The position numbers were made by a program, and so were the translations under genes. A model generated the notes under the pieces. That model was not told the DNA's origin, made no database searches, and saw nothing but the letters and a program-made list of their open reading frames with translations. Shown here one piece after another: positions 5,517 to 51,729 of a stretch of DNA of 64,000 nucleotides. The first letter of the stretch is position 1. Each line of letters opens with the position of its first letter. The stretch covers positions 76,572,001-76,636,000 of the forward strand of contig OZ076409.1 of the NCBI GenBank assembly GCA_964187785.1. The letters are read 5' to 3'. This DNA comes from Amphiscolops sp. MND2022. Taxonomy: Eukaryota.

Positions 5517-5553
5517 TGGTCTAGTGTCCGATGATGAACTTCATTTGCTGTAG

Positions 5554-5835: not shown

Positions 5836-5889
5836 TTTGAGTTTGTAGTTGAGTTAGTAAGGAAGTTAGTCTTAGGCAGTTCATCGAGT

Positions 5890-12311: not shown

Positions 12312-12324
12312 ACTCCTGTCACCA
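12312..12324 (-). other. Primer binding site of element A, TGGTGACAGGAGT (tRNA-Leu-like)
   Basis: TGG directly after the LTR CA; resembles the complement of the eukaryotic tRNA-Leu 3' end. Confidence 0.7.
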
Positions 12325-14562: not shown

Positions 14563-15782
14563 GCTTCTCTATTGATTCAACCTAAAATCTTTAACTAACT
14601 CAAAACACTGGATTTTCCGAGTACTAATAGCGTCAAATCACATGAAGGGAAAAATCCTGATCCCAGGCTGTAGTCTGGGACGTTCAACTGATTATATATT
14701 ATTTCTATGAAAAACTGTATTCCGCGGAAAAAACTCTTCAGGCCCAGTCACAGCAAAAACCTAAATAAGAGATTGAATTCAGTGTTTTTGTGAAGAACAA
14801 CTGTTGTGAATAATTTGTAACATTGAACAGAAATATGCCATATTTTGAGTCTACATCAAAAAATGTCAAGTACCTGTTGAAAGAAAATCTTGAGAAAATT
14901 ACGTTAACAGTTAGAGCCATTCAGTCACACTTCGACAATTCAAATATTAATGCCATAGTCACTTCAGCTATCACAATTGGTGTTGCGAGCAAAAGGATTA
15001 GACGGTTCAGCTGCTCGCATTTCTGACAAGAAGCTGAAAAGCCACCAACAATCGATTAGGAACAATAGATGGAACAGTGCGAACAAACAACATGTGGGCG
15101 AATCATTCCCATTTTGTATCAGAAATCACGAGAAAAGTGAAGGAACTAGTACCCCAATTACCAGCATTGTTGAAGAACGTGAACAACAACAACAACAACG
15201 AAAAAAAATAGTGGGTATGTTATATTTTGTCGTTGAAGAAATAGGACGGAAAGTTCCGATGTAAAAGTCGCCACGTATTATTATATCCTCAATCTAGCTG
15301 TTTGAACAACTGGAGAGTTCTAAATCATGTTTGAAGGCCGCAGAAATGGATACCAAGACCGGCAAACCTTTCTATTCCGGAACAGAAACAGAACCAGTCG
15401 CTGCAGCAATTATGGATAATCCTAATTGGTGTAGTTTGAAAATGCAAGTTTGGTGAGGAAACGCGGGTCCTGGTGTATGACATCTTTACCCGAAACACGT
15501 CGAACAAACGAGGACAAGAAAACTGTGGGCAATAACAGAGAAAGTGAACAAAAAAGAAATGCTGAAATAGTCAACGACGTTCCAATGAGATCAAAAACCC
15601 AGTTTTTTCATACTCTGGTGACATCACATTTCTCGCGACAATCCTAGGAAAGTCGGAACATGCGCGGTATGTCCTCTCGATATGATTTGAGAAAAAAGTT
15701 CAAACGAGGAAAATGTTAAGTTGCTGAAAAGTAAATTGTGCATTCCACTGATCTCTGACTACATCCAGGAGGTGTTCACAAA

Positions 15783-22698: not shown

Positions 22699-22902
22699 TG
22701 AGAAGTAGACGTCACTAAAAAGATGAACTAATTAGTTCATAGTACCTGCCAGTGCCTACGATGAAGAGCCTTACAGTACGAACATTAGATGAAGTTGTAT
22801 TCTATGATACAGATAGCCAACAGTTCATATGCTAACGATCATTACTTTGTGTTGATTTGTATTACTTTTAATACATTCTTCTTTATCTTCTCCGAGTTAA
22901 CA
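22699..22902 (+). repeat. Element C 5' LTR
   Basis: TG..CA ends; direct repeat of 28389-28596; followed by a tRNA-Ser-like PBS. Confidence 0.95.
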
Positions 22903-22921
22903 TGGCGCAGTCAGCAATCTA

Positions 22922-25900
22922 ATGGACAACTTAGACCCAAATACCTCAGAACGATCCGGGCAACAAGCCGCAAACCAGACAATAATGAATCAGACGACGG
23001 CAGACAGACTGGAGAAGAATAAATACAAAATACCGATTTTATCAGATAGAGAAACGGATCTCACCAAGATAAACCCACGAATGTGGTGGGAGCAGATTTC
23101 GAAATATATACACCTCACATACAACCGAAATCTAGAAGAATTGATGGACCAAGGCGTCGACCAAATGGGTCCGCATACGGTGTACCATATCAAAGGAGAC
23201 GTCATCTGGGCTTTAGGCCCCAAGGCCAAACATGAAATCATGAGAGGACAATGGGGCAAAGAGCTAAAAGACATTGACCTCCCAGAAATGCTGTAGCTAA
23301 TCAAGAAAACATTCATACCAGCAAGGAATGTATTTCACAGCCGGGCACAATTTTTTAATATCCAACAAGATGAAAATGAAACTTTAGACGAGTACTGGAA
23401 GAGATTAGTGGACATTGAGCGAAAATGTGAATTTAACAGCATCACACAGGAAGAAATTATTACATACAAATTTGCAGAAACAATTAATGACATAAAAGCC
23501 TGATACAAATTCATAAAAGGACGGGCTGAAACTTCAAATGGTACTCAAAACCATTGAACAAGACAATTACAACCGCAAATACGGAGACAAAAAAGCAAAC
23601 AAACGACCCCGAAAATTCAAACTGGAAAGTTCATTAAGTGAAGAACAAGTCGCCCACACACAACCAATACGGAAACAAAAAACCGCCGAAACATGGAAGA
23701 AGAAAATGCCAAACCGTAATTGTCGCTTTTGCGGTAAACCAAATTGGTCAATGGAACATATTTGTCCAGCACGGAGAGCACAGTGTAACAACTGCAAGAA
23801 GATGGGTCACTTTGCCAAAGTGTGCAAATCCAAAACCGTCAGCTGGATACAAAAAGAACCGTCAACGGACAGTGACACCGAATCATGGCCTGAAATTGAC
23901 CACATCCAATCCGTCAACGGCATAAATCGGATCGACTTCTACAAAGCGATACTATTGGTCCAAGGACAGCCAATAGAATTCATCATTGACACTGGCTCTC
24001 CGGTAACGATAATACCGCCTATAATTAATACAGCGGAATTATACAAAACCACAAAAAGTTTTGTAGATGTAAATAAAAACCCGATAAAGTTCAAAGGCGA
24101 AACCATGGTAGAAGTAAAAACGGAGAAAAGTAAAATAAAAACTTCCCATATTAATAACCGAGAACAAAAACACTCAACCCTTATTGGGACTGGACTGGGT
24201 GGACAAACTAGAAATCGGGCTACAAGGGAACACGAACACGAACATTATCAGATACATCGAAACGGATGAAAGAAGACAGAAGATCGTAAAAGAATACAAA
24301 GACCTATTCAAAAACAACCATACGATCAAAAAATTGGCAATCGACATCCAACTGAAAAAAGACACAAAGCCGATACAACAAAAAGGACGACCAGTGCCAA
24401 TACATTTTCAAAAACGAGCTGAAGAAACTAATCGAAACTGGACACCTGGAAAAAGCAAACAATACCACAGAAAACTGTTTTGTCTCACCGGCTGTCATAA
24501 CAATAAAGAAAGACAAGTCCGTGAAAAATGCTCTCGATTCAAGAAACCTGAACGAGGCATGTGTCAAAAGAAAAGCGACAATGCCAAATATGGAAGAACT
24601 GATCAGCAAAATATCAGCGGAAATCACCCGAAGCGACGGAGAAATCTGGACGTCAAAGATCGATTTGGATTACGCCTACGGACAAGCAAAATTAACCGCG
24701 GAGGCAGCCAGACATTGTGTATTTTCGATAATCGGCGGTGATTTCACCGGTCATTACCGTTTCAAGAAAGGATTCTACGGATTGTCGGATATTCCCACCG
24801 TGTTTCAGAAACACATCGACAAAGTGCCAGAATTTAAAACACCGGTTTGGCTAGATGACATCATATGTGTAACAAACGGAACGATCGATGATCACGAACG
24901 AGAAATTCGGGAAGTACTCAGAAAGCTACAAAACGCCGGTTACAGGGCAAGTGAGAGGAAAACTGAATTATTCAAACAGGAGTTAACTTGGCTGGGTTAT
25001 CACATTGATCAAAAAGGAGTGAAACCAATAAAAGATAAAACGGAAGCAATAACAAAATTGATGGCTCCAAAGAATGCTAAAGAACTAAAATCTTTCCTCG
25101 GCTCAATACAACACCTAGCGAAGTTCATCAATAACCTGTCCAAGAAGACAGACAGAATGAGGAGGCTGTTGAAGAAAGAGACCCGTTGGGAATGGACACC
25201 CGAAATTGACGAAGACTTCGAGAATTTAAAGAAAGAAATAACTGAACCCCCATGCTCGGCCCACTTCGACCCGAAGAATGAAAATTATGTGACAACAGAC
25301 ACATGCAACACGGGACTCGGAGCGACACTATGGCAGAAGGAAGGAGAAATTTTCAGACCAGTTGCATTTGCCAGCAGATTTCTCACCGATTGTGAAAGAA
25401 AATATGCTATTAACGAGTTAGAGTTGCTAGGGGCATTGAGGGGTTTAGAATACTTCAGGTATTTTGTATATGGAAAAAGGGTAAATTTGATAACTGACCA
25501 TCAAGCGCTACAGCCGTTGTTAAAACGGAACAGGGCACATAAACAATATAGCGCTAGGTTAACACGGTGGTTAGACAGATTAAGCAACTTCGATGTAAAT
25601 GTTCAATATACCGCCGGTAAAAACATCCCATTGACGGACTACTTAAGCCGACCTCCGATCGTAAACACCGATGAAAGCGCAGCGGAGAATAACTTAAACG
25701 GTCAAAACGAAGCGGAATCCGAAGAAGAGTTCGTAATAAACCAAATTTACGGCTTATTCGATTTCATTCAAACGAACGGAAGCATAAAACGATTCACAGA
25801 ACGAACAAAGCCGAGACAAAAAATTGACCAATCACAACACGGCATGCGTAAGCGTGAACAAAATAGACAAACTCATTTGCTCAAAACTTCGATACCACTG

Positions 25901-28233
25901 AACGGTGTTAACCAAATCGCATCAGTGAATTCTTCAAATAGATCAGAAAAGCCATCCAATATGGACAAAATAAACGGAATCGACATGCACTTCATATTCA
26001 AAAAAAGAGGGCACTCACCAGACACTCTCAAACTCTGGACAGAGAGAAAGAGACTACTGAAACCTGAACAAATGAGAATCGTGGGAAAAGGGACAGACAA
26101 TGAAAGACTCCAAGAATACCGACCCTCACAGCAAGTACGAAATAGAATTGTTGAAATAAATATGCAAATATACAACAGATTCTTTAGTTTCTGCGACACG
26201 CTGGGTACGACGCCGCTGAAAGAGTTCCAGCAGAACAACTACGAATCGTGGATAAAACAGTCATCCGACACTGAAAGTCAAACGAGCAATGTCAGACAAG
26301 AAAAATGTCCCACCAACGCCATCAAAAAGTTCCGGAAACACGAAACAATAAACCTAATCCGACTGAAACAAACCGTCAAGACGAACACCCTAGACAATGA
26401 ACACAACGAGCCGACAGAAGAAACCATCAAGAAGGCCGAAAAAGATTTTGCACTCGACTTGCCGATGTTAGTAGAAGAAACGGCGAGAGAGACAAAAATT
26501 CTGAATGCTATCACTGCCGTCGAAAAGAACCAGATTGATGAGATTTTTTACCCTTATTGACAACACAGACATCACATGACAACCCGATTTGGCCTACTTT
26601 TCTATAACGACAAGATCGTTATACCTGAAGCAATGAGAAGCACAATCATCGCCATGCTCCATCAAGGCCATCCATCAGCCACAAAGATGGACCAATCATC
26701 CGCAGCCTTCTGGTGGCCCGGCCTATATCGGGAGATAAAGGAGAAAGCAGAAAACTGTCCCAGCTGCAGGTCGTCAGGTAAAAATCTAACAACGCAATTA
26801 CCGTCATTGAAAAAAAACTATTTAGAAAATTTGTCTGAACCGAACCAAGAAATACAATTGGACTTTGCCGGTCCAATAAAATCAAAGACTCGCGGCGATG
26901 TATATATTTTTGTCGCAGTCAACCGTTTTAGCAAATGGCCCACCGCCAAAATTTGTGAAAATACCGACACACGGACAGTTTTAAAATTTTTAACGGAATA
27001 TTGTTCAGATAACGGAACACCACGGAGCGTACGCACCGATAACGGTAGTTGTTTTAAAAGTAACGAATTCAAAGAATTTTGTAACCAAGAAAATATAAAT
27101 CGCATTAGATGGACACCGAATCTACACACAGGTACCGGCCAAGTAGAAAGAACGATACGGAACAATTAAATCATTAACTAGAGCTAATATGGCAGACGGC
27201 CTAACATTTGAAGAAGGTGTTAAATTGGCGATTAAAACAATCAGACAAACTCCGCATAGTAAACTGAATTTGACGCCATTCCAAATGCATTACGGACGTA
27301 AGCCACGCACGGCAATAACCAATTTATTCAGCCGACCAGAATGTCTTCTCTCTAATTGGAAAAAAAACCAATTACGTTTCAGCGCAACCCACTGAGCTAC
27401 AGATGTTCACAATCAACGACTCAGAGGGAGAAATGGCAGATTATCTGATTCTTAACGATTCGAAGAAAAGAAATAGATCGGTAAGCAAGGAATTTAAACA
27501 GTATCAATTTTTCGAAAAAGAAAACAAACCAAATGCAATGAAAAGCAGATTTAAAACCAACAAAACACTGACGGCCGTGAACGAATCTAAACATACTATA
27601 ACAACGTCAGACGGAAAAATAATCCATAAAAAATTAGCGTCGAAACCGATAAAATTTCAGCTGCCGAAAACGCCGGAGGAAAAGAAGAAACCAACAAGTC
27701 GCTGTGTCAGATGCGGAAAATTTAGCCAAGGAAAGTACTGTGATACCCACAAACGAGTATACGGTACCACTGACGAACCGGGATGCAGCTACACCCTTCC
27801 AACAATGCCAGAGAGAAGATCAACTTACGGCGATGTCATAGAGGCGAACAACGGACAAGACGTATCGACGGAAGAACAGGGACCGCAAGCAAGCAACACC
27901 ACCGTCACAGGGGAAACGCAACGGTACGAAGAAGAAACCGCACTCGAGATACACACGCCGCCACCGTCTACGCCGGTACAGTGTAGCACCAGTTACGGCA
28001 CACAACCAAAACAACCGGAAGGCGAACAGCAGACGCCAATACGTGCCGCTGCAAATACCGAAGTTACTTCGAAGAAAAGGAAAACAAGCCCTAGAAGAGG
28101 TAACTTAAAAATAGTAGACAAAAAGGAACAAAAAAAACATAAAATACAAACAGAATCACCTGACCTTCGTAGATCAAGTAGAATAAAAGGCGCTAAGCGA
28201 ACCGTAAAATTAGGAGGGGTAGAATATTTCTAA
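22922..28233 (+). pseudogene. gag-pol: Element C gag-pol with stops and frameshifts
   Basis: Mag-type CRFC..HICPARRAQCNNCKKMGHFAKVC knuckles; IDTGS protease; WLDD RT; TTD/TDHQ RNase H; HQGHP..CPSC, LDFAGP, RTDNG integrase. Confidence 0.93.
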
Positions 28234-28388
28234 TTGGTTAAGTCGTTTAGAGTTCTCCAGCCAACTACAACGATTTCTGCGACAGCCCTTTCCGAAAATC
28301 AAAAAGGAAAACCCAACAACTGATGTCAAGGTCAAGTGGGAACCCACAGAAGCTCAGCAATGGCTTCCCTGAATTACAAAGGGGGGAA

Positions 28389-28596
28389 TGAGAAGTAGAC
28401 GTCACTAAAAAGATGAACTAATTAGTTCATAGTACCTGCCAGTGCCTACGATGAAGAGCCTTACATTACGAACATTAGATGAAGTTGTATTCTATGATAC
28501 AGATAGCCAACAGTTCATATGCTAACGATCGTTACTTTGTGTTGATTTGTATTACTTTTAATTCATTCTTCTTACTTTATCTTCTCCGAGTTAACA
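28389..28596 (+). repeat. Element C 3' LTR
   Basis: Follows PPT at 28378-28388; TSD follows. Confidence 0.95.
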
Positions 28597-29809: not shown

Positions 29810-29921
29810 TATGAGGATGCTATTGGTAACGCTTTGAAATATGCAAATTCGGTTTTCGATACAGTCTTGGGCCCTTAGGCACTCAGGGCCCCACCGCTAA
29901 ATCCTGAATAACCACTACAAC

Positions 29922-29979
<58 letters not shown>

Positions 29980-30350
29980 ATGATATCTCATGTACGTTCA
30001 ACAGATTGTTCACCAACTCTGAAGTGGGAAAATTTTCCTTGCGCTTCCAAAAAGTCTTCCACCAAAATATATCTTGTTTTTGTTTCTGGTCAAACTAAAG
30101 TGCTGCTCTGTCAAATCAACTGAAGGCCAATTAAGTAGAAAATTCAACCAAGAACCCATAGAGACCGTTTTTTCCGGAGCCAAATTGAAGTTTCTTCAAG
30201 TATATTCACACAAAGATTTTTTGAAGGACGTAAGACACCCGATAGAGATGCCATTTTTGGAAATGACAAGGTTTGATAGTGTTGGAATTGATGAATAGGA
30301 ACATTGCGATGCCATAATTTAGCATTTCAATCGGTTATTTGATTGATAGA
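29810..30350. repeat. Unclassified dispersed repeat, copy 1 (copy 2 at ~49700-50165)
   Basis: Collinear similarity, e.g. CAAATTCGGTTTTCGA.ACAGTCTTGG and AAAAGTCTTCCACCAAAATA. Confidence 0.8.
29923..29979 (+). repeat. (CTG)19 microsatellite
   Basis: Perfect trinucleotide run. Confidence 0.98.
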
Positions 30351-30462
30351 TACGGAGAAAGCTTTAACCAATTCGTACTGCGTATTGAACTGACGAAATG
30401 GAAATATATACATGATTTTACATGCAAAAATGTTCATGCTGACCCTTGTCGTCATATCATAT

Positions 30463-30733
30463 TGTACTGACCTACATTAATAACCAATAGTATTTAGATG
30501 TTTATAGAATGTTCTAGAATGTACATTCATTTATTATTGAATGACTGTAAGTCTCTACTCCCTCAGAGAGAGAAAACTAATAATCAGTATTTGGTTGACT
30601 TCCCTTTTGTTCTACTTCTACCACCTCGAACTAGTTGTAATAAAGTTAGCTAGCTAGCCTGTCTCTTAGCCGCTTTTTAGTAAGTTGTGAATAACACCAC
30701 CACCACACATAACCAACCATAAAAAGCAGCACA
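30463..30733 (+). repeat. Element D 5' LTR (271 bp)
   Basis: Direct repeat of 47760-48029; contains AATAAA. Confidence 0.95.
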
Positions 30734-30970
30734 ATTGGTGCGACTTGTAAAAGTTCTTGCCTTTTTCTCCTGGATGATTTCTTTTCTCTCAACAATAATA
30801 CAAATACCACTCTCCACCTTTGAAATTCTCTGGAATTGCAGTGAAATCTTTCTAGAATTTCTTGAAAATTTAGTCTGTGACTTTCTGAATTTCATCAATA
30901 ATACATTATCGTTAGAAATACAATTTCTCCACTACAACAATCAATTCAAACATAACAAGTTTTCTTCACT

Positions 30971-31300
30971 ACCGGTTTATCACGTTTTCTAACACGTTGA
31001 CACGGTTCTTCTTTCTGCTCTTCTTGCCATACCGGTTTATCACGATTTCTAACACGTCGAAACGGTTTCATTTCAGACTGATTTATCCATTGTGACACAG
31101 TTCTGTTTCTCTTCTTTTTCTAGACTGATTTATCCAAAAGTGACACAGTTCTGTTCTCTATACTGATTTATCAGAGCTAATCCGGAAGCTTGTTGAAACA
31201 GTTCTTTGATGTTTGTCTGGCTTATCAAGGTTTTCTAACATCTTTGACACAGCAACATTTGTCTGGTTTATCAAGGTTTTCTAACACCTTTGACACAGCA
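30971..31300 (+). repeat. Array of seven degenerate stem-loop units in the element D 5' leader
   Basis: Consensus CYG-RYTTATC-N(6-22)-GA-MA-CRG at 30971, 31031, 31077, 31124, 31162, 31217, 31263. Confidence 0.85.
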
Positions 31301-32310
31301 ACTTTCTTCAATCCTGCTATCTTCAACGTCAGGTGGACTCCTGGTGTAATAGTTGACTGAGTGCATGTCCAGCTCCGCTCACCTATAAGCACATACGTCT
31401 CAAGATCAACTTCGTGTTGGCAGAAAACCTGGATTTTCTACTTTTACGTTTCGGATCCATTTTCTACAAAAAAATTCTACAAAATAGTTTTCAAAAACAG
31501 ACTCTGAATACAAAAAAGGCAACCAAGACTATCTACAAAAAGCAACCACGCCCTATTCCATTTCTTTTCCAATTGTCGACAAACAACACAAATAATTTCA
31601 AGAAACATAAACAACACAAGAAAAATAACAACACAATCTACACTTAACTTTATATCTATTACCTTCAACAGCAATGATATGATTTTAACATAATCCTACA
31701 AAACAATGATTTTAACAAAATACCACATACATTTCCCACAACTCTTTTGCCCTAAAACCTAAATAAAGGCATGTAAATAACACAGACACTGTAAAGGTAG
31801 TTTTCTACTTTCAGGCACCCACAATTCCTATCCCCTCCCGTAAGACTTAGACAATCAGATAGCTTCACCAGCTTACTCTGATTCTAAGGCTGACTAAAAA
31901 CCTTAGTTAAGTGTAAACGTCTTTGAGGAGAATCGAGAGGACACCGAACTACGTTCGAATCTTCAAAATTCTCAGGAAGTAAAAGTAAAAGTAAAAGAGA
32001 CAAAGATCAAACTTTGATCTTGATCAGTATTGATCAGACTTTGGAAAGTGGACCTTGATTGTTCAGAGCTCCACTCCCTTAGTCTTAAAACACACAACTC
32101 ACCTAAAGTTAAAACAACCTTAGCTTTTCTGGACGTGTCAGTAACATTGTGTTAGACACTTTAAAGTGATCCAGACTTAAAATCACACTTAGTTTCTGTT
32201 AGCAATCCTTTGAGGTTGAATACAGATTCTATTGCATCCGCTTCTTTCTTCTCTATCCAAAACTATTAACTTCCCAAATAACTTCTAATTCTTATTAAAT
32301 CACAAATTAT

Positions 32311-32649
32311 ATGAACTCTAACGTATACAACCAAAGAGTTCATTCTTTCAAGTTTTACATTCCACCAATTAGCTCACTTCAAAACCCTACATCAGACGAT
32401 TTTGAAAGATTAATTGAACGATATCAACAATATTTTTTCTTTATCATAAATCAACAAAGACATTACCCAAGAGCTCCAACTTAAAGGGATCTATATCAAA
32501 AATTATTTTCAACGTTTCAACCTTCATATTATAACATGTGGGAATTAGTTACCACAGTAGTGCTCATTACAACATACACGTTTTGTGTCTTATTTCTATT
32601 TAGTATTCTCTTTGAAAAAATACTTACAGTGATAAGAGATAAAATCTAA
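32311..32649 (+). pseudogene. Small pre-gag ORF (112 codons, one internal stop) with a C-terminal hydrophobic helix
   Basis: ATG at 32311, internal TAA at 32482, LVTTVVLITTYTFCVLFLFSILF segment, stop 2 nt before the next ATG. Confidence 0.45.
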
Positions 32650-32651
32650 AA

Positions 32652-35600
32652 ATGAACTCCTCAACAACAACCTTTCTACTTTTTCAAACTCCCGTCATTA
32701 AAAATGCAAAAGTTGTAAAATTAGACCTAAACCCATTCCTACAAAACATTATTTCCCATTATGCACAACCACTCCCATTTGGAAATGAACCTCATACAAT
32801 TGAAACAATACCTCTTATCAGAGAACATTTGGACACATACCTCTTCTATATTATATACAAAGTTCTAACTATCACTACAGAATACCCAGCTTTTCAAATC
32901 TCCTTTCCTCAACAAAGACCTAATTCATCTCATATATACAGAAGAACTATAAACCCAATAAACCTTCACGTTCCTATTAAACAAGTTTTTCATGCTTTTT
33001 TAAACAATGTGAAAGACCACAACCTAGCACATGAAACTCCAAAATTTAGTCCAAATGCACTCGACGAACTTGAACGATATATAAATAATTTCGACGTAGA
33101 AATTATTGAAAGATTAGTTAATCCTGAAGACAATCCTCATCATTGGTTACAAACTGATACATTACGAATACAAAATTTCCTCTACCATTATTTCAAAGAC
33201 CTAACATTAAATGACCAAACAATTCCTCAGATCAAAGTAATATCTCTATTCCTCAGAAAATACTTCAGATTCAATTTTCAACTTATAAGGTCACAACAAG
33301 ATCAACCTGCTATCATAGCATTTCCAAATCATTTTACATCTGACGAATGTTTACCATTTATCATTAGTGAACAAATCCTTATTATTAGTGAACAATTAAT
33401 GAACATCCTTATTTCCATAAACCACAACTAATTACAAAACAAACTTTAGATTACATATGTTTTGATCCTCTATTAATTACAGAAAATGATCTATTTGCAG
33501 ACAATAGACCTTATCACTATGAGCAATGTTCTCAAGTTCAACAAAACTTGAATTTTAACACTAAGAACTATTCTGAAGATGATAATACCAATAATGAAAA
33601 TACACTCCAACAACAAAATCAAAATGAAAACTATAATGATGATAATCAGATCATTGAAAACAATGCAAGTGAGTTTACTACTCAAGAATCTACAATTTCA
33701 ACAAATAATGCATCACAAGTCGGAACATCAACATCAACACACATTCCATCCTTTAGAGTTCCAACTAGAGTTGTAAATCAAAGACAAAATACACATAATC
33801 CTCAATCTCACTTAGATACATCTCCAAACTGTAATATAACTTTCAACCTTCCATACACAGACGAAACAACACACGACGAAACTCATGACACATTACATGA
33901 AGATATTCTGACCACATCTCATGCTCAGAAAACTTCTGTTAATGTTGCATATCCAACAAGAACTATTCCTTATTTTACAAGATACATTACTCGACCTAGA
34001 CATGATCCTCCATCAATTCCTTCTTCTTTCCGCTCGGATAGATCAATTTCTTCAAACAATAATTGTAATGATAATCCACAAACTTCCAATCAATATTACG
34101 ATCCATTCAATTATAACTTTTCTCCTCCATCAAATACAAATACTAAAGCAAATATCAACCAAAATCACTCTCAATTTAATACGAATTCAACAACACAAAA
34201 CCCTTTCATACAATTATCACAAACCAGTACTTCACAGAATAATGTATATTCTCAAAATCAAGGAATTTCGTATCCTTCAACTTCTTATTCTCATACCACA
34301 CAACATTCTCAAAGAAGACTTCAAAACCCTCCACTTACACATATACCAACTGATCCTTTGTATCAAATGCATCCAAGTACAAATCCAAATCCTAATCCAA
34401 ATCCAAATCCATTACCACAAAATACAACTCAACATATACCTCCTCAACTCACACAACAAGCAGCTCCTCCACTCCAATACTTACCAATACCACAAGATAC
34501 TTTTATGAACATGTCCGCTTCAATACCAGAACCTATGAAACCTTTTGATGGTTTAGACCATTCTTATACTCCAGAAGAATATCTACAACAAGTCGAAGCT
34601 AGATTAACCTTCGCCATAGGTGAAGAACCTCAGAATAATCCTATAAAGTACAAATCTTTGCATAATAGACGCATGGCTTACATACAAAGTTCTTTAACTG
34701 GAACAGCTCTCGATTGGTATACTAACCTTCATATATCATATAAACAACAATGGAACTCCTTTGTACAATTATTCAAAAAACAATTTTCATCTCAAAAAAC
34801 AGCTTACTACGCCCAAGTAGAAGCTATGTCACTCATGAAAAAAGATAATGAAACAGTACGCCACTTCGACCTTAGAGTACAACAATTAGTTAAAAAGGGA
34901 TGGTGCAATGAAAATGCAGCTACCGTAAACCTCAAAAATATTGAAATCTTTACAAAAGGATTACCCAAAAAACTGAGGATTTTGCCCATAAACGACAAGT
35001 TAAACATGAATCGACATTATTTGAACCTTCAATACCATTTCACAGACTTGTTAGACATGTCGATTCTGAAGACATTGCTGAAGAAAAAATTAGAACTAAC
35101 GACTTAGCTCTAGAAATAAACAAAGTATCGCTTGAAGATGATACAAACAAAAGAGAATTTGAACATGAAGATCATATAATGGTTACTCAATCTGGAGACC
35201 CAAATAACAAAAGCAAACCAGCGTTTAAAAAATATTGTTCTTATTGTCACAAAAATAATCATGGTATTTCAAACTGTTATCAAAAACAACGTGATGATGA
35301 ATACCAAAAATACACAAACCAAAGATCACGAACTCCTCAACAATCTTTTGTACAATATTTTCGCAGTAAACCTAATAACTCACAAGAAACTCGAAATGAC
35401 ATGACAAATACCTTACTCCTCAGATAACGATCGTAACAAATATAATCAAAATTACCATAACGATAGATACAGAAATATTGATAGACATCGTAGCAATAGT
35501 AGAGAATATTCGCAAAACAACTATAGATCAAATTCTCGACAAAGATATTACAGTCGATCTCGAAGTCCATCTAGATCTCGATTTGATAATTATTATCAAA

Positions 35601-35833
35601 GAAGAACTCCATCTATATCTCCATATAGATCTCCAAACAGAAATAACTCAAATTACAGATATAACTCCCGCTCAAGATACAGATCTCGTTCTCAATCACA
35701 AGAAAACTCCTTTAAACGATATAATTATCCATATAGATCTCCATCAAGACCTAGAGATTTTAGATCACGATCTAGAACACCCTCACGAAACAGACAACAA
35801 AACAGAATAAATCAAGTAGACGTTAAATTATAA
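32652..35833 (+). pseudogene. gag: Element D gag with a long N-terminal extension, capsid, one CCHC and an RS-rich tail
   Basis: MKPFDG..PEEYLQQVE..LTGTALDWY..WNSFVQLFKKQF capsid; CSYCHKNNHGISNC; joining 32652-33431 to gag is inferred. Confidence 0.85.
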
Positions 35834-38800
35834 AAGACAATGATAGTACAAAATTTGAAATCCACACTTGCCAAATAACTGAAATCGCTGATACAATTAC
35901 TCCTTATAGTTGGTTTTATCCACTATATGTTCATGCTTCTGAAACAAATGATACCATATTACCTTCAAAATTAGAAATCTTATTCCTCTTAGATACTGGA
36001 GCATCCATATCTGTTTTGAATTTACCAACATTTCATGTAATTTCCACACAATTAAACATCAATGTTCCGACCAATCTTGAAAACAAAACTTATGTACTAG
36101 GGTAACAATCCCTATTAAAAATTAACAAAATAGAAATTAACGACAAAACACTTCAACTTCCTATACCTTCATTTCTTGGAAATCTTCGACCCTCAGATAA
36201 AATTCGAAAAGATTTTCCTCCATTACCATATTCTACAGAAAACCAACAATTCTTAAAAAAGTTTAACTTTGAATACTCAGATTTAACCGATACAGAATAT
36301 GTAAACCTCTGCAATATTTTGATTGATAATCAAAATTGTTACGCCAAACATAAGAACGACGTAGGAAAATTTTCTACTCCCTTTCGAATTAGAATAAAAG
36401 ATAACTGTAAACTTCAAACACAAAGACCTTCTAAAGTACCAATTCATCATAAAGATAGGCTGAATAAACTTTTACTAGAACTCGAAAAATACAAAATAAT
36501 AAAACAATATAGTTCCACCTCAAATGAAAAACACACAATTGGAACAACATTTTAAAACCCTCTATTTGTTATCCCAAAAGGAGACGCAATAAAAGTTGTC
36601 TTAGACGCAAGACATTTAAACTCAAACACCAACCAAGAACTTGAATCTTGGCCCATTGAACGTTTAGCTCCTCAATTAGCTAGAGCAAAAAAATATAAAT
36701 CAACTATTGATCTAATGTATGCCTATGCTCATACACCATTAGATGAAGAAACAATCAAACTTACAGGATTTTCATCCGGTGACAAACTATACGCCTTTAT
36801 CCGTGGATTTTACGGATTAAAGGGACTTCCAAACTATTTCACAAAACAAATGTCAACTTTCGTTAGACCACTTATAGACAAACGTTCTGCGTTAGTGTAT
36901 ATTGATGATTTTTTACTACTCGCAAATGAAAAACAAGAAATGTTTGAACTTATAAAAGAATTACATAAAATAGCATCTCGAGAAAATCTCAAACTTGCAC
37001 CCTAAAAATCATTCTACATGTTACTCAAAGTAAAATTCCTTGGACACGAATTTGGTAATAACACAATCAAACCAATTCCATCCAAAATTGACGCCATTAA
37101 AAAAATTCCATCACCAAAAGAAAAAAAAGATGTTATGCAATTTCTTGGCAGTGTTAACTTCTATTCAAAATTCATTGAAAAACTCCATATAAACCTTAAA
37201 CCATTGTATACATTACTACATGATGATGGTAAATTCCAATGGACACCTGAAAAAATATTTCAAAATGTAAAAAATGCAATGACAGCAGACACTGAATTAA
37301 CCATACCCAATACAACGCATCCATTTTTCAAAACAGTAGACGCTTCGTTAGTTGGTTTAGGCGCAGTCTTATTCCAAATGAACGAAGAATTCTTAACACA
37401 CAAGAACAAAAACTTTCAACTTTAGACAGAGAACTTTTCGCAATAGTTTAGGCATTACAAATATATGAATTTTTGATCATTGGATCTCCTCATCCCATAT
37501 ACATATTCACAGATCACAAACCTCTACTACATTGTTTTGCAAAGAAAAGAAATCCTAGTCCTTGATTTTATAGAGCACAAATGCAATTAACCAAATTCTC
37601 CAAACTGAAAATCATTCAAACCCCTGGAAAAAACTCAACCGTAGAAGATATGCTTTCACGAACTTTTACAAAAGAACAATTACAAGTACATCAATTACGA
37701 CACAAACAATTACCACCTCAAATAGATTTCTCTATCATGAAAGATAATCAACTCAAACCAGTACACTATTTGGTAAAACATGAAGAAATCAAATATAATC
37801 AAAAGAATGATTGTCATCTTATCCTTGCTGACTACGGAGACGACCAATTCTCTATCCGTATAAATAACAAAGGAGAAGATATCCACATCAAACCTTTAGA
37901 TTCTTTCTCTTTTCAATCTATTGTTCCATTTGAATCAAAATATAAAAAACCCACAAAAAACCAAACAAAATCTCTCTTACAACAATCGAAAATTCTTAAC
38001 GATACTGATATTCTCAGTGATGACGATGACCTAACTCAATCAAATAATATCCAACATCAAAACTCAGACATATCAAAAGAACACACACTGGCTATACAAT
38101 ATCCTACCAAATCCTATTACTGTAATCAACAAGTTCCATTTTTTGATCCATCTTTCTTCAAATACAAAAGATATTTTAGTTATTTCTTCCTACCAGAAGA
38201 TACACAAATAACAATTGAAACAAAAAAAACTCAACAAAAACAAGACACTGTTTTACAAAAAGTTTACCAATGGGTACTTAATAATGAAAGACCCTTACAA
38301 ATAGACCCAACAATTGCAGCAAATTCTTTCTTATTAGTATATTACAAAATTTTCAACCAATTGTATGTTAACCATGATACAAAAATTATTCACCTAGATT
38401 ATCCTAATCTTCACGATCCAAACCCGAATCAAAGAGACAAAATATGTTTACCATCTAAACTCTTCCTTGCAGCTTTTAACCAACTTCACGCTCATGGACA
38501 CTCAGGAATAAAAATATCCATCAAAGCTTTTAACCAATTTTACTTCATACCATATTTGAATAAATGGATGTCAATATTCATCCATGATTGTATTGAATGT
38601 CAACAAAATAAACATATTAACCAAAAAATACAAACTGCATCCATACAAACATTTTCAGAAAATGCTTCATATTTCAACTACCGAAAATCAATGGATACAA
38701 AAGGACCCATAAACCCACCAACAAATCAAAACTCATACATTCATGTTATAGTAGACGCTTTTAGTCACTCTGTAGTAACAGTACCTATAAAACAAAATAA

Positions 38801-39970
38801 TGCTCAGAACGCTGTTAACTCCTTACTACATCATTGGATAACAAAATTTGGACCTCCTGTATACCTAGTTACCGACCGTGGATCAGAATACATTAATTCC
38901 GAATTCGCAAACTTTTGTACCACAATGGGAAATAGACATTCACCAAGAACTCCTTATGCACCATAGACTAATGGTTTAGTTGAAAATCAAAACAGAAATT
39001 TTGGAACTCATCTCAGACTTTTCTTACATAACACTCCAGAAAAATGGTCAACTCAAGTTCATATGTATGCTTATGCACATAATTCACAACCACTTTCTGA
39101 AATGAACTTATCTCCATATGAAATAGTATTTCATACTATACCCAGAATTCCAATCAATTTTGAACTCAATCTCCAAAGAGATACCTATGGAAATTGTACT
39201 TCCCAATATTGTCAAGAATTACCACTTCATACACACTATGACAAACAAATCTAAACCCCTTCTTCCATAAAATTTTATCCAAACCGATCCCACAATGGAT
39301 TTTAGCCACTGAAACTGCTATGATACAAATATACCACACAGTATATGAAAACACAAAAAGAAAAATTATTTCTTACGCTTATTTTAACAAAACATACCAC
39401 AATCCGAGACCCTTGGATATTGGTACATTTGTACTAAAAAGAAAATTTCTCCATGTTCATTTTTCCGACAAATTAAAACCTCTCAGAATTGGACCATTCA
39501 AAATTATTAACAAAATTTCCGATATAACATATGAAATTGTTAATCTCACATACACAGAAATCATTTAGTTCCTTACTATCCAAAAGAACCAATTTTATTT
39601 TCTTTCCTACAACAGTATAATCCTCATTTACTCAATGATAATTATTCGAATATAAACGATCCAAAAATTCTTTTGACTCCGATGAAAACCAATTCAGTGA
39701 CGAAGATCAATTTTCTTCCACAAAATTTAATAAAGAAACGGATATACCATCCACAATCAACTTCCAACCGGAATCATTTAGCCAATATTTTTCATTTCCG
39801 TACCCAAAAAAAGAACAAGATTCTAAAAATACCAACTCAGATAACCAAGCAGAAATTCATGATTATGATAATTTTATTAACCCCCGAAGACACCCCTATA
39901 ATAGATACAATTTCCGCCCACAACCAAGAAAAGACTATCGACTTTTCCTTGGTGAAAAGGATATAATTTC
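35834..39970 (+). pseudogene. pol: Element D pol (PR, partly deleted; RT; RNase H; IN)
   Basis: LLDTGASIS, GFYGLKGLPNYF, YIDD, VDAS/TDHKPL, HAHGHSG..CIEC, MDTKGP, VTDRGSEY, GPF motif. Confidence 0.93.
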
Positions 39971-40133
39971 ACTTTCTCAAAATCCTGCTGAAATACAGAA
40001 AGAAAGAAAATTTGAAAGAAAGAAAGAACGTTTGAAACTTAATGTGAAATTGAATGCAAAAAATTTTTTCACAAGTGATAATAAAAGAAAGAAACTCTAA
40101 TTAACATAAAATTAACTAACTTACATTTTGAAG

Positions 40134-41420
40134 CAAACTACCCTAACACAAAAGATTTCAAAATTGATAGACACACTCATTCACCATCATCAACTACAAA
40201 TTATTCATCTTCTAGTTCAACACAATCACTCCAAACATTACCTGAAAAAACAGCATATTTAAACTCAGATACAGAAATACTGGATTCCTCATCCTCAAAC
40301 CCCAGTCCATCCGCTCCATTTACTCCTGATAGAGTACCAGCAACACCCACCAATAAACCTATATCCCAGACTCAAAAACCAGTAATAACAACTCAACCAC
40401 AACCTATTTCACAAAATTTAGTATTTTCAGAAACAAGTTCACCAGTTACTGACTCTAATGATGAAACACTTACAACATCAACTACACAAGATACTTCAAG
40501 TATTTTAAATAGACCTCCTTTCCCACCATTTACTACCACTCGTTCCGTTTATATCCCTGATCCCAACTCAGTTCTGCAATACATAAATTCTTGTCCACAT
40601 AAAATACACACAGCAACTAAAACAAAAAGAAAAACTCCTTTACCTACATTACCACAAGACCTTAACTTACCATCAACAAGTCATACTCCACCCAAACTAC
40701 CACAAGACCTTAACTTACCATCAACAAGTCATACTCCACCCAAACTACCACAAAACCCCAACTTACCATCAACAAGTTGTACTCCAATAACATTCCTACC
40801 ACTACCAGAAACTTCATTAAAGGCATCAGTGAAGAAATTACAACAACACCCAATTCCATCACCATCTGTAAGTTCATTCACATTTTCTCAAACATATCCC
40901 AAACTTGAATTAGAACGTGTACATTCAACCACTACCTCTTCTTTAACAGATTTATATCACAAAGATAAAGATTCTGACTCAACTGTCAGTACTAGAGTAC
41001 CAAGACATAATTACAACCTTAGATCTCAACAACGAAGAAATTCTCAGGAATTACAATCTTCAACTAGTTCAAGTACAAACTCAAGACTAGTTAGACAGCA
41101 CGTTGAACCCAGATTAATTAGACACTTCTTCTCTTTCCTCATCTCAACCCACTATACCATCTTTTTTATCATTACCATTTCAAATCACATCAGGATTTGA
41201 AACAGCTTCTCTTCTTTCTGAAGACCCAATAACTATATCAGATAGCGCAGCTAATTTTTCACAAGTTTATTCACCTAGTTCAATAACATCAAACTCTTCC
41301 ATACAACTACCTGAATAATTTTTAGAAGATTTCTCAAGACCTCCAACACCAAACCCTCACGAATATCCCATCCGTGTTAATTCAAAAATTGTTCGACTTA
41401 ATTGTAGAACAAAATTTTAA
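40134..41420 (+). pseudogene. Ser/Thr/Pro-rich ORF between pol and env
   Basis: Frame open from ~40200 to 41200 without an upstream ATG, then frameshifted; contains a 48-bp tandem repeat. Confidence 0.5.
40651..40787 (+). repeat. 48-bp tandem repeat, ~2.8 copies (PQDLNLPSTSHTPPKL)
   Basis: ACCACAAGACCTTAACTTACCATCAACAAG.. at 40651, 40699 and 40747. Confidence 0.95.
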
Positions 41421-41434
41421 CCAATAATTTAACC

Positions 41435-44010
41435 ATGAATCATATAACTTTTAGCCTATACCTAGTATACATAATACATGTTGTTAAATACATATATATA
41501 TTACACATAGTTCACTCTTTAGTTCACCCTTCAACTGTTCCTAAAGTTGATACAACCAATTCCGAAAATCAAATTTCAGACCAAAACCCCAACAATTTAA
41601 ACTTAATGGTATCCCATTATGATTGTGCAAAACAAAACAACTTAAGCCAATTCAGTTTATTAAATGTTGAACCATGTAAACAAGCACCCTCAGATATACA
41701 ACACACAAAAACCTAAGCAACAGTTTATGTTAGAGCAAAAGCCAAAAGAATAAAAGCCTTTAAATGTGAAGCATATATAAAAACTGAAAAGGTCTGGTGT
41801 TCACAAAAATTCTCATCCAGTAGACGACATGATCGTTTACAATGGGGACAAAACACATTAGAACTTCCAAAAATATTAGACCCCATTGAATGCAAAAACA
41901 TGATAAGATATTTAAACGCGACTGATAGCGAAGAACTAAACAATTACAATATACAAAGCTCTTTCTCATTGTTCGACGATAGTAACTATCAAAACACAAT
42001 TGAACGAATTCAAACACCATTTAGAGTAAAAAAATTAAACACATGGCTTATCGGAACCTTCGTATTCGATGAACATTATCCCGACTGGATAGTTAATGTT
42101 ACACAAAATACATACTCCAGATGTCGAGCCGACCGAGAACATTTAATTACCCGACAAAGTTGGAAACTTAGAATTGTTAACACCGCAATAGATTATGATG
42201 ATAAAAACAATCAATTAATACATGACGGACACATATTACCATGCTATCATTCAGACGGATTTTGTAAACCAACGACAAAAACCCCATATACATTAACATG
42301 GTATGATGAAAAAATTTGCCTCATATTTCAACTTCAAGAATTCATTGGTAGAATGACACGAATTAAAGATAGATATTGGATAGAAATCGATACCTTCATT
42401 GAAACTTCAAACATCACACAAAAACTTCAAACCGAAGGAATACAAGGAACAAGATATCCCACTGTGAAAACACCACAATCAAAAGTAAGTAATCCAAGCC
42501 TTTCTCGACTTGAAATATACCCAATTGCACAAACCTACTGTGGAAAACCTGAACCATTATTCTCAACACAATATGATGACATCTTTGGTACATACTTAGA
42601 TGGTTTTGATATGAACACAGGACAACCAAACCCACACTCAATAATTGATCAAACAATTAGTGGAAACATAAAAAATGATGACTCAAATAAAAGGTATATA
42701 TTCCCTGCATTGAATATATCAAACAATTTCGCCCCTTAGACTATGATGCCCACATTATTACAAAAATTGATTTCACAATAAATCATGTATTTAAATCCAT
42801 GACAGTACAAGAACTAAACACCCTTCATACAATTTGTGAACGGGAAAGAACTCAATTGTTAACAACCTTAGCTATGTCAGTCAAGAATCCTCAATTAGCC
42901 GGTTTTCTTTTAACTGGAAATCGTAGTAACTTTCTCTACGTTGAAGGATCTAGAGCATGGCTGTATGATTGCCCTCATTTTATATCAACACTATACAAGG
43001 CAGATAAATGCTTTGATAGAATTCCCATTTACTACAGAGAAATTATAATGTATGTTGATCCTATAACAAGACAAACTTTTAACTATGCAACACCAATTGA
43101 ATGTGGAAATAACCCACAAAATATAATTGAATTAGACCCAGATTCTAACGACGGAGATTTTTATGTGTTAACACCAGAACCACTCAATTGAGAAGCACCA
43201 CAAATGTTTAAACCTACCCAGTTTAAAACAACAATTATTCCTAATACATTTACCCCCCAAGATGCAGGTATATACTCAAATGCAAAATTAGATCAATTTT
43301 GGAACAGAGTATTATTCGCTAAACACTCAGACACAACTCTTCAATTACTTGGAAAATCATTAAGCTATGATTTCATCACAGTGCATAATGATAAACATTC
43401 CTACTCAGGACATAATCCTTATAATCATTTAAGGATTGGAGTACATGACCACTTGTTAAACTTCTTACCACTTTTCAACCCTGACTGGTTCTGTCAAGCA
43501 ATCATTAATTTCTTTGGATATCCATGTTATGTTTTAACACAATGTGGAATTTACTTTTCAACATTTCTTTTCATTAGAGAAATTTTAACATTTTTACTCA
43601 AATTCTACACAACAATTAGCATAAAATATAATCTCCAAAGCAACATTTCCATTTTGAGTTCAATTGCCCATGGATTTTTTAATATAGTTACATCGGAAAT
43701 GATAACCGATTTGAACAATACAGGAAAACGAAAACGGATATATACTAAACACAAAATCACAACAAGTGAAAATGATAATATCATATTGCCAGAAAAAGAA
43801 TTACCCAAAAAACGAAGATTTTCTGATAATGACTCCCCTTATTTACCTCCTAAATATTCCAGTAAGAATTCAACATTTCAATCACCGCCAAAGACACACC
43901 CAACTAATGTCAACGATATTAACTCTCAGGACTATGACCCAATATTATCAAATGTAATAGCTGTACCGGAAAGTCCTGCTAAAGTCTTTATAAAATTTAA
44001 TCCCTCCTAG
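41435..44010 (+). pseudogene. env: env: class III (chuvirus G / herpes gB-like) fusion glycoprotein with stops and a frameshift
   Basis: Hydrophobic signal; HYDC..FSLLNVEPC; LPCYHSDGFC..W..C; ICERERTQL..NPQLAG; WLYDC..CFDRIPI..YVDPITR..IEC; C-terminal hydrophobic segments. Confidence 0.85.
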
Positions 44011-44450
44011 CTAAAAAGCAAAAACCAAATAAACAAATTAACCTCAGAAAAGTTAAAAAAATTATCAACAAAATTTTCCTCAGTTTAACTTTCATTCAAA
44101 CCCAAATTCTCACTTGGACCAGTCTCTCCTTTCAACTCAACTGAAAATTCATTTGCCCATCACAACTCAACACTCAACCAGAAGACTTCAACTGGATCTT
44201 CAGTCCATCTAAAAGACCGAAATTACAGAAGTTTCTATTCCTGGAATAGATGCCACTGTGATTGTTGATGTTTTCAACCCACAATTGACTCAGTTATTCT
44301 CACACTGTAAGTACAATTTAAACTTCAATTTTAGCAAACAATTTAATGGACAGAAAAGACATAACAAAATTTTTCCTCCTTATTAGAAACAGTATAATCA
44401 AATGTTATAATCATTATTTTAGCTCTACAAAAACACGAAAGTCTAATTAA

Positions 44451-45742
44451 TTGGAATCCTTGCCCGAAATTGATGTAGTTAATTCTAACTCCTCTGAATT
44501 GTTTGCATCCCCTTTGAATATAACTATTCGACAAAATGTTAACGAAGATAATAATTCATCTTCAGATTCCCAAGATCCCATGGAAACTATTCCTATTGAA
44601 CAAGTAGATCATGTTAACGCAAGATCTCAAAATAGAAAGTCTCCAGATATAACTGCAGACAAACCTTTTATGGAATCTGGCGCTTGCCCTCCTTTCATAA
44701 AAGCAGTTAAACAAGATGAAGATAGAGATTGTGAATTAGTTCCTATTCTCTCATCAAAACAATTTACCTTTCAATCTCAGTTAACATCGTTATACATGAT
44801 TCCAACAAAATACAACTTCATCATCAGAGAATTCAAAAATGAGTATCATACTTCAATCGCTTCAAAATTGATTACCCCATATGATTGGTGGTTAAACAAT
44901 AAAGTAAAAATTTTCTCACTCCAATACAACTTCCTCAGACCATCTCCATATGATCTTCGAACCGAAGAAAATGATGCAAATTTTTTGCCATACCAAATCA
45001 AAAAGGCTCATCACATGACTTATCAGAAGTTTCTTCACTACAAAGAGCCCGATAAATATATATTCTTCAACTCCAAATACACGTCGCCATTTACTTTCAA
45101 CTCAGAATACTTGATAGATCATATCAAAACAAAAGGAAAACTTAGAAATTATGATCCGCTTTAACAAAGTTTTTTTTTCCTTCCAAATGATAACCCAAAA
45201 AGACCAATCATTGTACCACAAGAATACCTCATTCTGAACGACGATTCGCTACTACAAGAAGATATACCTCAAAATATATCTGATTCTCTTCCTCCACTTC
45301 AACATATAGCCTCTCAACCTCTGGGAGACTGTGAAAAATCTTACTTTTACGCAATGACCAAAAAGGGATATTCAAATAATGAAATAATTTTCATTATTTC
45401 TCATCTACTTTCACTTCTTACAAATGGAAATACTAAAGAACACAAAAAGACAAAACAAGAATCGCCAAAAAAAACAAAAATGACATTCCTCAACCACAAA
45501 GTTTTCGCCCAACGGACGAATTACAGAAATATACAGAAATTTTGAACATCATAAAACCTTATCATCATCCGAACCGAGATATTCTTATAACAATCGCCGA
45601 AATCGTAAATACTCTTGAACAAGCTCGAAGCATAATACAAAATATCGTATTCGATACGACAAGAATTAGCCAATCAGCTTTGTGTATTCGCACTTCTTTG
45701 GACGAATTCAATTATACTATTGAAAAAATGCACCGATCTTAA
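44451..45742 (+). pseudogene. Post-env accessory ORF(s), unknown function
   Basis: 237-aa open frame plus frameshifted continuations at 45165-45545 and 45542-45742. Confidence 0.5.
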
Positions 45743-47759
45743 CAGGTAATTATGGGATAATAATTTTAAATTGTTAACACTTATCATTTAATCTCTTAAC
45801 AACCTGTCAAAACTAATTGAGTCTACACGCATATGCCTGCTATGCATGATTATATTACCTGTTTCATATTAAAATACTCTTTTGAAATAAAATAATATAA
45901 AATTTTCAACCGCGACATAAAATTTTTAAACAAAATTCCTCAATTGCTCCTCCTTTTAATGGACTGATTTTAACAAATAAGTGCTTATATGAAAGATATT
46001 TAAATACCCTTCAAAAGACTTCCATAATACATCAATTTAATTCTTAAAATTAAAAAGTTATAACATCACAAATTACATAAAAAAAAAATGTCAACTAAGA
46101 AACTCTATTTTAAAAGGAACTTTATTGTAAACAAACTAATCTATTTTAGGTGAATACCGTCACAACTGCTTCATCAGCATTTCTTCCTTCTCTCAAGACG
46201 TCCATCCAAAAAGATTTCCAACGAAATCTTCTACAATTTTCAACAAATTTCTTCATATTCTTCAATATGACGACACTCCATTCTGGTGACATTGATTGCC
46301 CAATAGCTCCTCTTCTTTCCTTCAGCTCGATTGCGATCCCTGATTCTGAAAAAGCATTTAACAACATTAAATACACAGCTCAAGACAGATAAAAAGGCAG
46401 ATCCTCATTTTACAAGAATGATATTGCTCAATATGTTTCAAATATTCCAAATTACACGAATAAACTTTGACAAAAATCTTCAAATTCATAAACATCCTGA
46501 TACATATTCGACCAAACGAGACGCCACTACCCAAACAGAGCATACTACCATCAAGCCCAAACATTTATCACGAAATCTATCTAACAGAATGCGTTCTGAA
46601 ATGGAAAAACAAAACCTAAATTCCTATTGGCTTCAGACAATAACGACGATACTGATGAAGAATTTCAAAAAAACCCTACAGAAACACTTCTAGATGATAA
46701 CTCCCCATACAAAACGTACACTTACGTCTCTTTTTGATATCAACAGATGACATCAACAGCACTCCTCAGATGACAACTTATCTTCCAATCCAAACATCCA
46801 CAACGCTTGCTCGTCACAACTCAGCGCCCGTTCTTCACAACTTCACAGCCGCCCAACAGCTGACCCATCTTCATCCATCTTCCAATCTTCAATCTTCAGC
46901 CATCCAGTTCTCAGCCGAAGAAGATGATAAATAATCAATAATAAAAGAAACTCAAAGAAAAAACATTGTGCATGATAATATTTAAAAAGATTCAAACTCA
47001 TACCGAAAACATTTGCAAAGTATGTATTTCAAATTTCATCCCCACCCATGTTTATTTGCCCTCAAAATCATTTAATTCACACCTTTATCGATGTTTATTT
47101 GCTTTATTTTTAAAGAATACTTAATAATTATCAATTTTTGGTGCTATCCTACCCAAAACTCACATATGTTATTCACAAATCTTTTCAACATTTCAACAAA
47201 ACAAGTTCAAAAAATAAATCAAGCACATTGTTCAAAGCAGATTCGAATAATGACAGACCCAAATTCACAACTTTTCCAACATTTGTTACATAACAAACCC
47301 GCCAAAGTTGACCACAACCTGATATCTTTTCAGACAGTTTTCACACTCGATGAAAAAATCTTATCAACAAAATTTTTTCAATGACTCTTTGACCTTTAAC
47401 TTGTATGATGTTTGCTCACATTTGTTCAATGCGAAGTTCATTCAAAGACTTCAACAGAGGCATAAAATTGAGCAACTACCAGTTCAAAAAACAAGCCGAC
47501 GAAAGCTTAGTGAAAAAGAACACTTTGACGCTTTTTGAACTGTAGTCGCACCTACGAGGTGTCAATCAAAATTTTGACAATTCGAGGTACACCAATGAGT
47601 CGAACTTACACCACTCTTAAAGAGACTTATGCCAATCATCCATCAAATGAAAATTGTTAACTAGCTGAAACGCTAAGAATATTTAAACAAAAAATTTTTT
47701 CTTCATTTTAATTAATGATGCTACTTTAAAATTTTATTTTATTTAAAAACCGGGATGGA

Positions 47760-48029
47760 TGTACTGACCTACATTAATAACCAATAGTATTTAGATGTTT
47801 ATAGAATGTTCTAGAATGTACATTGTTTATTATTGAATGACTGTAAGTCTCTTCTCCCTCAGAGAGAGAAAACTAATAATCAGTATTTGGTTGACTTCCC
47901 TTTTGTTCTACTTCTACCACCTCGAACTAGTTGTAATAAAGTTAGCTAGCTAGCCTGTCTCTTAGCCGCTTTTTAGTAAGTTGTGAATAACACCACCACC
48001 ACACATAACCAACCAGAAAAAGCAGTACA
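47760..48029 (+). repeat. Element D 3' LTR (270 bp)
   Basis: Follows the PPT; TSD ATAT follows. Confidence 0.95.
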
Positions 48030-48426
48030 ATATGACTCATATGATCCACATTTTGTTGCTAAAAACCTGATTGTCTGAAATGTAACAGCAATTGTGTAAA
48101 GTGTTGTAACAGAGAAGATTGCCTTTTTATTCTGTTTTTAGTCGGCACTTTTGGAACAAAAAAGGCCTAACTCTTACAGATTGCTAATTTGTTTCTCCAG
48201 ACCTCTAACTGACAGGTCCACTTTTTGCTACCATACTTTTTGAAGCTTTTGTCGTTTTTATACAACTTAGAAAGTTTGGTTTTGCTTGTTTTTTGCGGCA
48301 TTTGAGATTTTCAAAGCTTCTTGATGTTGCCAAAGTTTTCATTTATGCTTCAAAAGATAGAGGAAAGACTATACAATGTTTCTCTTGTTTGCAAAACAAC
48401 CGAGTTGGCCTCCTTCGATGACCAAT

Positions 48427-51725: not shown

Positions 51726-51729
51726 GTAA

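Follow-up and report, generated by a model that had tools for sequence, protein, structure and literature searches.

Host element and its surroundings

The window, i.e., the whole 64-kb stretch of DNA that was analysed, is packed with LTR elements of several kinds. One of them, a Ty3/gypsy-type LTR retroelement of 17.6 kb with an env-like gene, present as a decayed copy, carries an array of repeated hairpin-like units in its 5′ leader (Table 1). Its assignment as an LTR retroelement is based on two direct LTRs, TG..CA ends, and a target-site duplication. Aligned with each other, the LTRs show 266 identical positions, 4 mismatches, and 1 gap. The last 7 nt of the PBS-like site equal the tRNA-Gly GCC/UCC ends listed in supplement 2 of PMC13524379, a match limited to these 7 nt, and the PBS word of the element is absent from the two supplements of that paper that were searched. 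The 5′ leader extends for 1.9 kb from the PBS-like site to the first gag ATG.

The domains of gag-pol follow the order PF03732, PF00078, PF17919, and PF17921/PF00665, corresponding to gag and then RT-RNase H-integrase. Compared to relatives, the region shifts frame at least 7 times, contains 5 in-frame stops, and shows a gap of some 240 residues. Since the LTRs differ at only 5 of 271 positions, these breaks were read as decay after insertion; the alternative of a non-autonomous lineage that has retained cis signals alone was rejected, as the breaks appear to fit such decay. The Gag family is very large, with 263 relatives among 801 candidates and clusters of 2,803 and 2,407 members. The 120 relatives among the matches listed all come from ENA assemblies, and one Gag subfamily is 69% identical to the Gag of the element. 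Past the CCHC knuckle, Gag runs into a long RS/RY-rich tract (35405-35833) resembling SR proteins or viral core proteins.

The family matched by the env-like gene, PF24664, is of the class III fusogen type, and the first env-like piece had no match among the sequences of solved structures. An S/T/P-rich ORF, in which a 48-nt sequence is repeated three times (40642-40785), lies between the pol and env-like genes (region 40085-46700), and the approximately 3.7 kb downstream of the env-like region hold more unannotated ORF pieces. In its LTR-gag-pol-env order, its RT-RNase H-IN order, and its match to a class III-type fusogen, the element resembles errantiviruses in the wide sense as presented in the available parts of PMC13524379, although the 17.3 kb between its LTRs exceeds the 14-kb limit of that survey.

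Three more LTR elements with near-identical LTRs were observed in the window (950-14563, 22699-28573, and 51525-56660), comprising a BEL/Pao-like element (minus strand, DUF1759, LTRs of about 2.2 kb), a gypsy-like element, and a copia-like element (RVT_2). An older repeat, 78 to 83% alike between its copies at 29835-30351 and 49706-50166, flanks the array-bearing element and contains a CTG19 microsatellite in the first copy.

Table 1. Positions of the array, its host element, and associated sequence words in the window
Feature	Position	Strand	Remarks
Target-site duplication	30459-30462 and 48030-48033		ATAT, 4 bp; flanks both LTRs
5′ LTR	30463..30733	+	TG..CA, 271 nt
AATAAA (30639), then donor-like GTAAGT (30680) 41 nt on	30639..30685	+	in LTR; putative function
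PBS-like site	30736..30747	+	TGG 2 nt past 5′ LTR
Unit 1, type A	30971..31006	+	closing stem ACCG/CGGU, apical stem ACGU/ACGU, loop UUUCUAAC
Unit 2, type A, duplicate of unit 1	31031..31066	+	top apical pair broken
Unit 3, type B, short	31077..31101	+	stem ACUG/CAGU, C-G after UC
Spacer between units 3 and 4	31103..31123	+	polypyrimidine tract ending UAG; acceptor-like
Unit 4, type B, duplicate of unit 3	31124..31149	+	
Unit 5, type C	31162..31202	+	apical stem AGCU/AGCU, 8-nt loop
Unit 6, type D	31214..31255	+	apical stem AAGGU/AUCUU, one G.U
Unit 7, type D, duplicate of unit 6	31260..31301	+	apical stem AAGGU/ACCUU, bulged UG/CA extension of closing stem
gag-pol	32652..39640	+	retrotransposon Gag domain, CCHC knuckle, RS-rich tract, RT, RNase H, integrase
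env-like region, in pieces	41717..44010	+	middle piece matches PF24664 Monjiviricetes_fusion, E 8.7e-11
3′ LTR	47760..48029	+	270 nt

Layout of the array

Seven units spanning 30971 to 31298 form an array of about 330 nt in the leader. All seven are present as written in the initial annotation, which had placed them just downstream of the PBS; the array in fact begins 235 nt past the start of the PBS-like site (30736). The consensus CYG-RYUUA-UC-(variable)-Y-GA-MA-CRG starts at 30972, 31032, 31078, 31125, 31163, 31217, and 31263, and the spacing between its arms ranges from 23 to 39 nt. A two-unit pattern gave 5 matches in the window against 0 in 100 shuffles. When the window was scanned for the two arm words combined with a complementary closing stem, the seven plus-strand units were recovered along with two loose minus-strand matches elsewhere. 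The suggested covariance-model check was also run, and the model built from the seven units finds those seven alone in the window, the next best match reaching 12 bits (E 1.6). Neither an eighth unit within the 64-kb window nor the hairpin motif in any of the three other LTR elements was detected with this model.

The units fall into four types in the order A A B B C D D. Tandem duplicates are highly alike (88% for units 1 and 2, 93% for units 3 and 4, and 95% for units 6 and 7), likeness between types amounts to 51 to 79%, and 12 of the 46 alignment columns are invariant. The spacers are pyrimidine-rich, as first described (77% pyrimidine versus 54% over the whole leader). Types A and D have the loop UUUCUAAC in common, carried on two different stems. 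The loop of unit 5 contains a self-complementary hexamer, UCCGGA (31181-31186), preceded by two adenines, a single case that can be chance. A hexamer after two adenines recalls the pattern of the HIV-1 dimer-initiation loop.

The helices had been described as covarying in the closing stem and as differing yet still pairing at the apex. The latter is confirmed by the four different apical parts, all of which are paired at the base. For the closing stem, the sequences are as given, but the change from C-G to U-A is a single event, since the seven units represent four types derived from recent tandem duplication. The CUG..CAG stem of units 6 and 7, taken for a further compensation, is instead a lost A-U pair made up by the bulged extension. 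A second double change had been missed and concerns the pair right after UC, which is A-U in units 1, 2, 5, 6, and 7 and C-G in units 3 and 4. As for the internal loop, drawn as RYUUA opposite CA or AA and followed by UC/GA pairs, the core letters are conserved as claimed, but the 5x2 pairing is one of three registers.

Covariation between the arms

Adding three apical pairs to the structure of the initial annotation, 91.9% of 62 cells are paired, and two-sided changes are found in 4 of the 9 pairs. The covariation score was reached by none of 500 column shuffles, and slid partners pair in 22 to 40%. Because the column-shuffle control ignores kinship, duplicates were collapsed to one unit per type. 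In this reduced set, 32 of 36 cells are paired and per-pair shuffling gives a p of 0.0015; the assignment of each type to its own arms ranks first of 24, with a p of about 0.04 that is the floor for four types and refers to a structure derived from these very sequences. Ranked by duplex energy, own arms again come first of 24 among types, and of 5,040 unit assignments they are in the best 4.

The independent compensations number approximately three to four: the closing-stem change, the change after UC in units 3 and 4 (where one pair may instead have been lost symmetrically), an apical stem that was remade between types A and D while the loop stayed the same, and the distinct apical stem of type C. 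Both variable pairs are kept in all seven array units versus 4 of 30 distinct chance look-alikes (34 pattern-hit loci, L020-L053). This comparison indicates that pairing is not forced by the arm words; it does not show that pairing has outlasted an ancestral palindrome. The proposal that the structure is under selection thus draws modest support from the two-sided changes and from the top rank of own arms, but it is tempered by the small number of events and by folding energies that show no excess (see below). Judging from the sequences, selection has probably acted on the RNA structure of the array.

Variation within run X1 (share 0.12) was available from 17 contigs covering units 3 to 7 and leaving units 1 and 2 uncovered. 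One contig over units 3 and 4 differs at 31109 and 31121, both in the spacer, and at 31136, in the loop, with stems and core untouched, a weak result given its depth of 2.3 and a hand-estimated chance of about 0.1.

Predicted folding, register, and strand

The folding energy of the array does not exceed that of shuffles on the plus strand (z +0.47) or the minus strand (z -1.0). Folded as minus-strand DNA, the array gave a z of 0.03, and a role as single-stranded DNA, which finds no support in this value, was discarded. Single units have energies between -2 and -9 kcal/mol, and none goes beyond z -1.6 on the plus strand. In the leader context, the predicted pair probability of the closing stem is at most 0.08 for units 2 to 4 and swings from 0.97 to 0.01 for unit 5 with the span allowed; only unit 1 is steady, at 0.32 to 0.72. 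As nearest-neighbour energies skip non-canonical loops and bound protein, this weak predicted stability neither refutes nor supports the fold. Among 26 tile-strands of the leader, a single 150-nt tile has a low z (32233-32382, z -3.1 with 40 shuffles, -10.8 kcal/mol).

Three registers of the core can be drawn, and a 2x2 loop followed by UUA/UGA is the lowest-energy one in 6 of the 7 units; the sequence cannot decide between registers because the core columns hardly vary. The minus strand folds as well, units 1 (z -2.4) and 7 (z -1.7) being its best folders, so the plus strand is assumed from the orientation of the element only. Hints as to the strand are opposed: units 5 and 6 have G.U pairs, which speak for the plus strand, whereas the A.C of the core would be G.U on the minus strand.

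Searches for relatives and comparison with known RNA elements

Between 30400 and 32700, no Rfam match came near the gathering score, the sole match on the array having an E value of 4.1. Scans of viral, metagenome, and prokaryote contigs with Gag found no relative. Pattern scans outside the window yielded 19 + 2 viral, 32 metagenome, and 17 prokaryote stretches. All 70 scored at most 21.7 bits under the covariance model, compared to 37 to 55 bits for the training units, and were treated as chance on these scores; a full unit was present in none of the first 19. A metagenome minisatellite with a 52-nt period (L025, 1-480) was rejected as a relative since it scores below 19 bits, changes core words between copies, and lies outside any retroelement context. 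It shares both arm words with units 1 and 2 and has an inner CAUGA/UCAUG stem, probably by chance. A literature search covering mostly open-access titles and abstract openings found no description of a repeat-hairpin array in LTR-element leaders. Apparently, this variant of a familiar type of leader element has not been described before; its covariation is suggestive but thin.

Like the retroviral and Ty1/Ty3 Psi and DIS/PAL elements described in the available parts of PMC5035971, PMC4974528, and PMC6844567, the array lies in the 5′ leader past the PBS, comprises several predicted hairpins including one with a self-complementary loop hexamer, and belongs to an element with a CCHC Gag. In those sources, however, such elements are made of unlike hairpins or a pseudoknot, whereas here seven copies of one internal-loop module are found, without an Rfam match. 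A second resemblance, to the MPMV CTE, the RSV DR, and the HIV RRE, lies in recurring internal loops to which proteins bind on unspliced RNA, a role for which the array is a candidate. The CTE has two internal loops. The array differs from these elements in its leader location rather than an env or 3′ location, in its seven copies, and in its lack of an Rfam match, and membership in the CTE/RRE families was rejected for this last reason. Binding by Tap is described for export elements in the available text of PMC5035971.

The gypsy insulator, which comprises 12 sites over 340 bp of the 5′UTR, and the similar leader repeats or elements of gtwin, ZAM, and Idefix are described in the accessible portion of PMC3383448. 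Here too, repeats of about 330 to 340 nt occupy the 5′UTR of an env-carrying Ty3/gypsy element, but the insulators act as DNA, and that portion does not describe covarying hairpin arms for them. In one of its three registers, the unit also resembles a kink-turn, with a 3-nt RYU bulge following a canonical stem and, after it, pairs that place two invariant adenines at 1n and 2b. According to the available text of PMC8191799, the standard k-turn is defined by tandem G:A/A:G pairs. This identity was rejected since neither G occurs in any of the seven units, which all have U:A and A:C or A:A instead; the k-turn-like register is 1 to 4 kcal/mol worse than that of the initial annotation and 2 to 4 kcal/mol worse than the best one. 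The hammerhead catalytic core consists of CUGANGA and GAAA. Hammerhead ribozyme repeats of the retrozyme or Penelope type were discarded, as the units read CUGAUUU, CUGGYUU, or CCGGUUU and no hammerhead match was obtained with Rfam.

A possible docking array for Gag

With pairing variable helices, an invariant mismatched core, seven copies, and flexible pyrimidine linkers, the array has what would be the anatomy of a multivalent protein-binding RNA. Gag would be its likeliest ligand because the array lies in the leader and Gag carries nucleocapsid features. We tentatively favour the reading, drawn from sequence features, that the array consists of selected RNA modules likely bound by the element's own Gag as a switch between packaging and translation. 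In the genomic RNA, each repeat would fold as a hairpin with its fixed internal loop held between two variable helices, and together the repeats would offer a multivalent binding site. Because the plus-strand fold is weak on its own, the hairpins probably form once protein is bound. Loading of Gag would then single out the unspliced RNA for packaging and remove it from the translated pool, while unit 5, through its palindromic loop, may act as a starting point for dimerisation. A title among the references of PMC3383448 names such a switch, involving Gag and the 5′UTR, for Idefix.

Both a packaging signal and an RRE/CTE-like export element had been offered at first; the position after the PBS and before a Gag with a CCHC knuckle, i.e., between the PBS-like site at 30736 and the gag ATG at 32652, fits an element of the packaging type, and an RRE/CTE less. 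According to the sections available, the packaging signal of Ty1 lies at nt 237 to 380 (PMC4974528), matching the position of the array, as does the location of the RSV packaging signal (PMC5035971), and Ty1 dimerisation is driven by 5′UTR palindromes (PMC6844567).

The same hairpins could be read by a host RNA-binding protein that controls how the unspliced RNA is spliced, exported from the nucleus, or localised; in this view, hairpins together with pyrimidine spacers would gate a 3′ splice site inside the array, with a CTE-like effect. This reading, which we consider possible but doubtful, shares all the structural evidence for hairpins and draws on several splice-like words: the putative acceptor site ending at 31123, immediately 5′ of unit 4, ranks first of 387 YAG sites in the element, with pyrimidines at 17 of 18 upstream nt; the donor-like GTAAGT at 30680 lies upstream of the PBS; and the branch-point-like word CUAAY is present in 5 of the 7 units, which hold 5 of its 8 occurrences in LTR plus leader. 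UUUCUA and UCUU words, which bind PTB-type proteins, and the pyrimidine content of the spacers point the same way. However, the acceptor score simply counts pyrimidines, and pyrimidine-rich spacers by themselves yield acceptor-like sites. Known CTEs, moreover, sit near the 3′ end, and the array lacks an Rfam match. Rather unlikely in our view is a neutral relic, in which slippage or template switching of RT multiplied an ancestral imperfect palindrome and arm-to-arm copying produced matched changes without selection. The recent duplication of three of the four types, the low number of independent events, the unremarkable folding energies, and further short tandem repeats elsewhere in this decaying copy would agree with such an origin, but arm-to-arm correction should erase the internal loop, and the mismatched letters are invariant between types that differ by 21 to 49%. 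The basal pairing of four different apical parts also argues against it.

At the DNA level, the array could be a cluster of transcription factor sites, acting as an enhancer or insulator like the Su(Hw) array of the gypsy 5′UTR, with incidental hairpins. TGATAA, which we take to be a GATA word, is present on the minus strand in 5 of the 7 units, as is TGACA in 5 of 7. The place and size of the array (330 nt) are similar to those of the gypsy insulator in the available text of PMC3383448. Nevertheless, a site cluster leaves the matched changes of the two arms and the paired variable middles unexplained, and a fixed dimer site on DNA would not tolerate an arm spacing that varies by 16 nt. In addition, the change in units 3 and 4 spoils the GATA word or its flank and yet keeps the RNA pair by means of the far arm, making this interpretation distinctly unlikely.

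Returning to Gag as the ligand, a bolder and very unlikely version would see in the units an undescribed recurrent RNA module, a bulge with two invariant adenines giving a k-turn-like kink without G:A pairs, that works as a Gag-counting switch. By loading the hairpins, Gag with its RS-rich tract would hide the strong 3′ splice site just before unit 4 and turn a spliced messenger devoid of the PBS into a pool of unspliced, dimerising, and packaged genomes, in thousands of copies. According to the available part of PMC4974528, the packaging signals of LTR retrotransposons, those of Ty1 and Ty3 included, have been defined only poorly. The thousands of natural copies of the family would provide the alignment depth for a real covariation test, failing which the array would be an ordinary leader repeat, and a unit of 25 to 40 nt lends itself well to probing and binding assays.

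Promoter-like words were also observed in the element. Each LTR carries a perfect three-unit GAAnnTTCnnGAA word (30507-30519 and 47804-47816), presumably the heat-shock-element pattern, next to a TATA-like TTTATA (30501), and the leader between 30820 and 30900 is also rich in GAA/TTC words.
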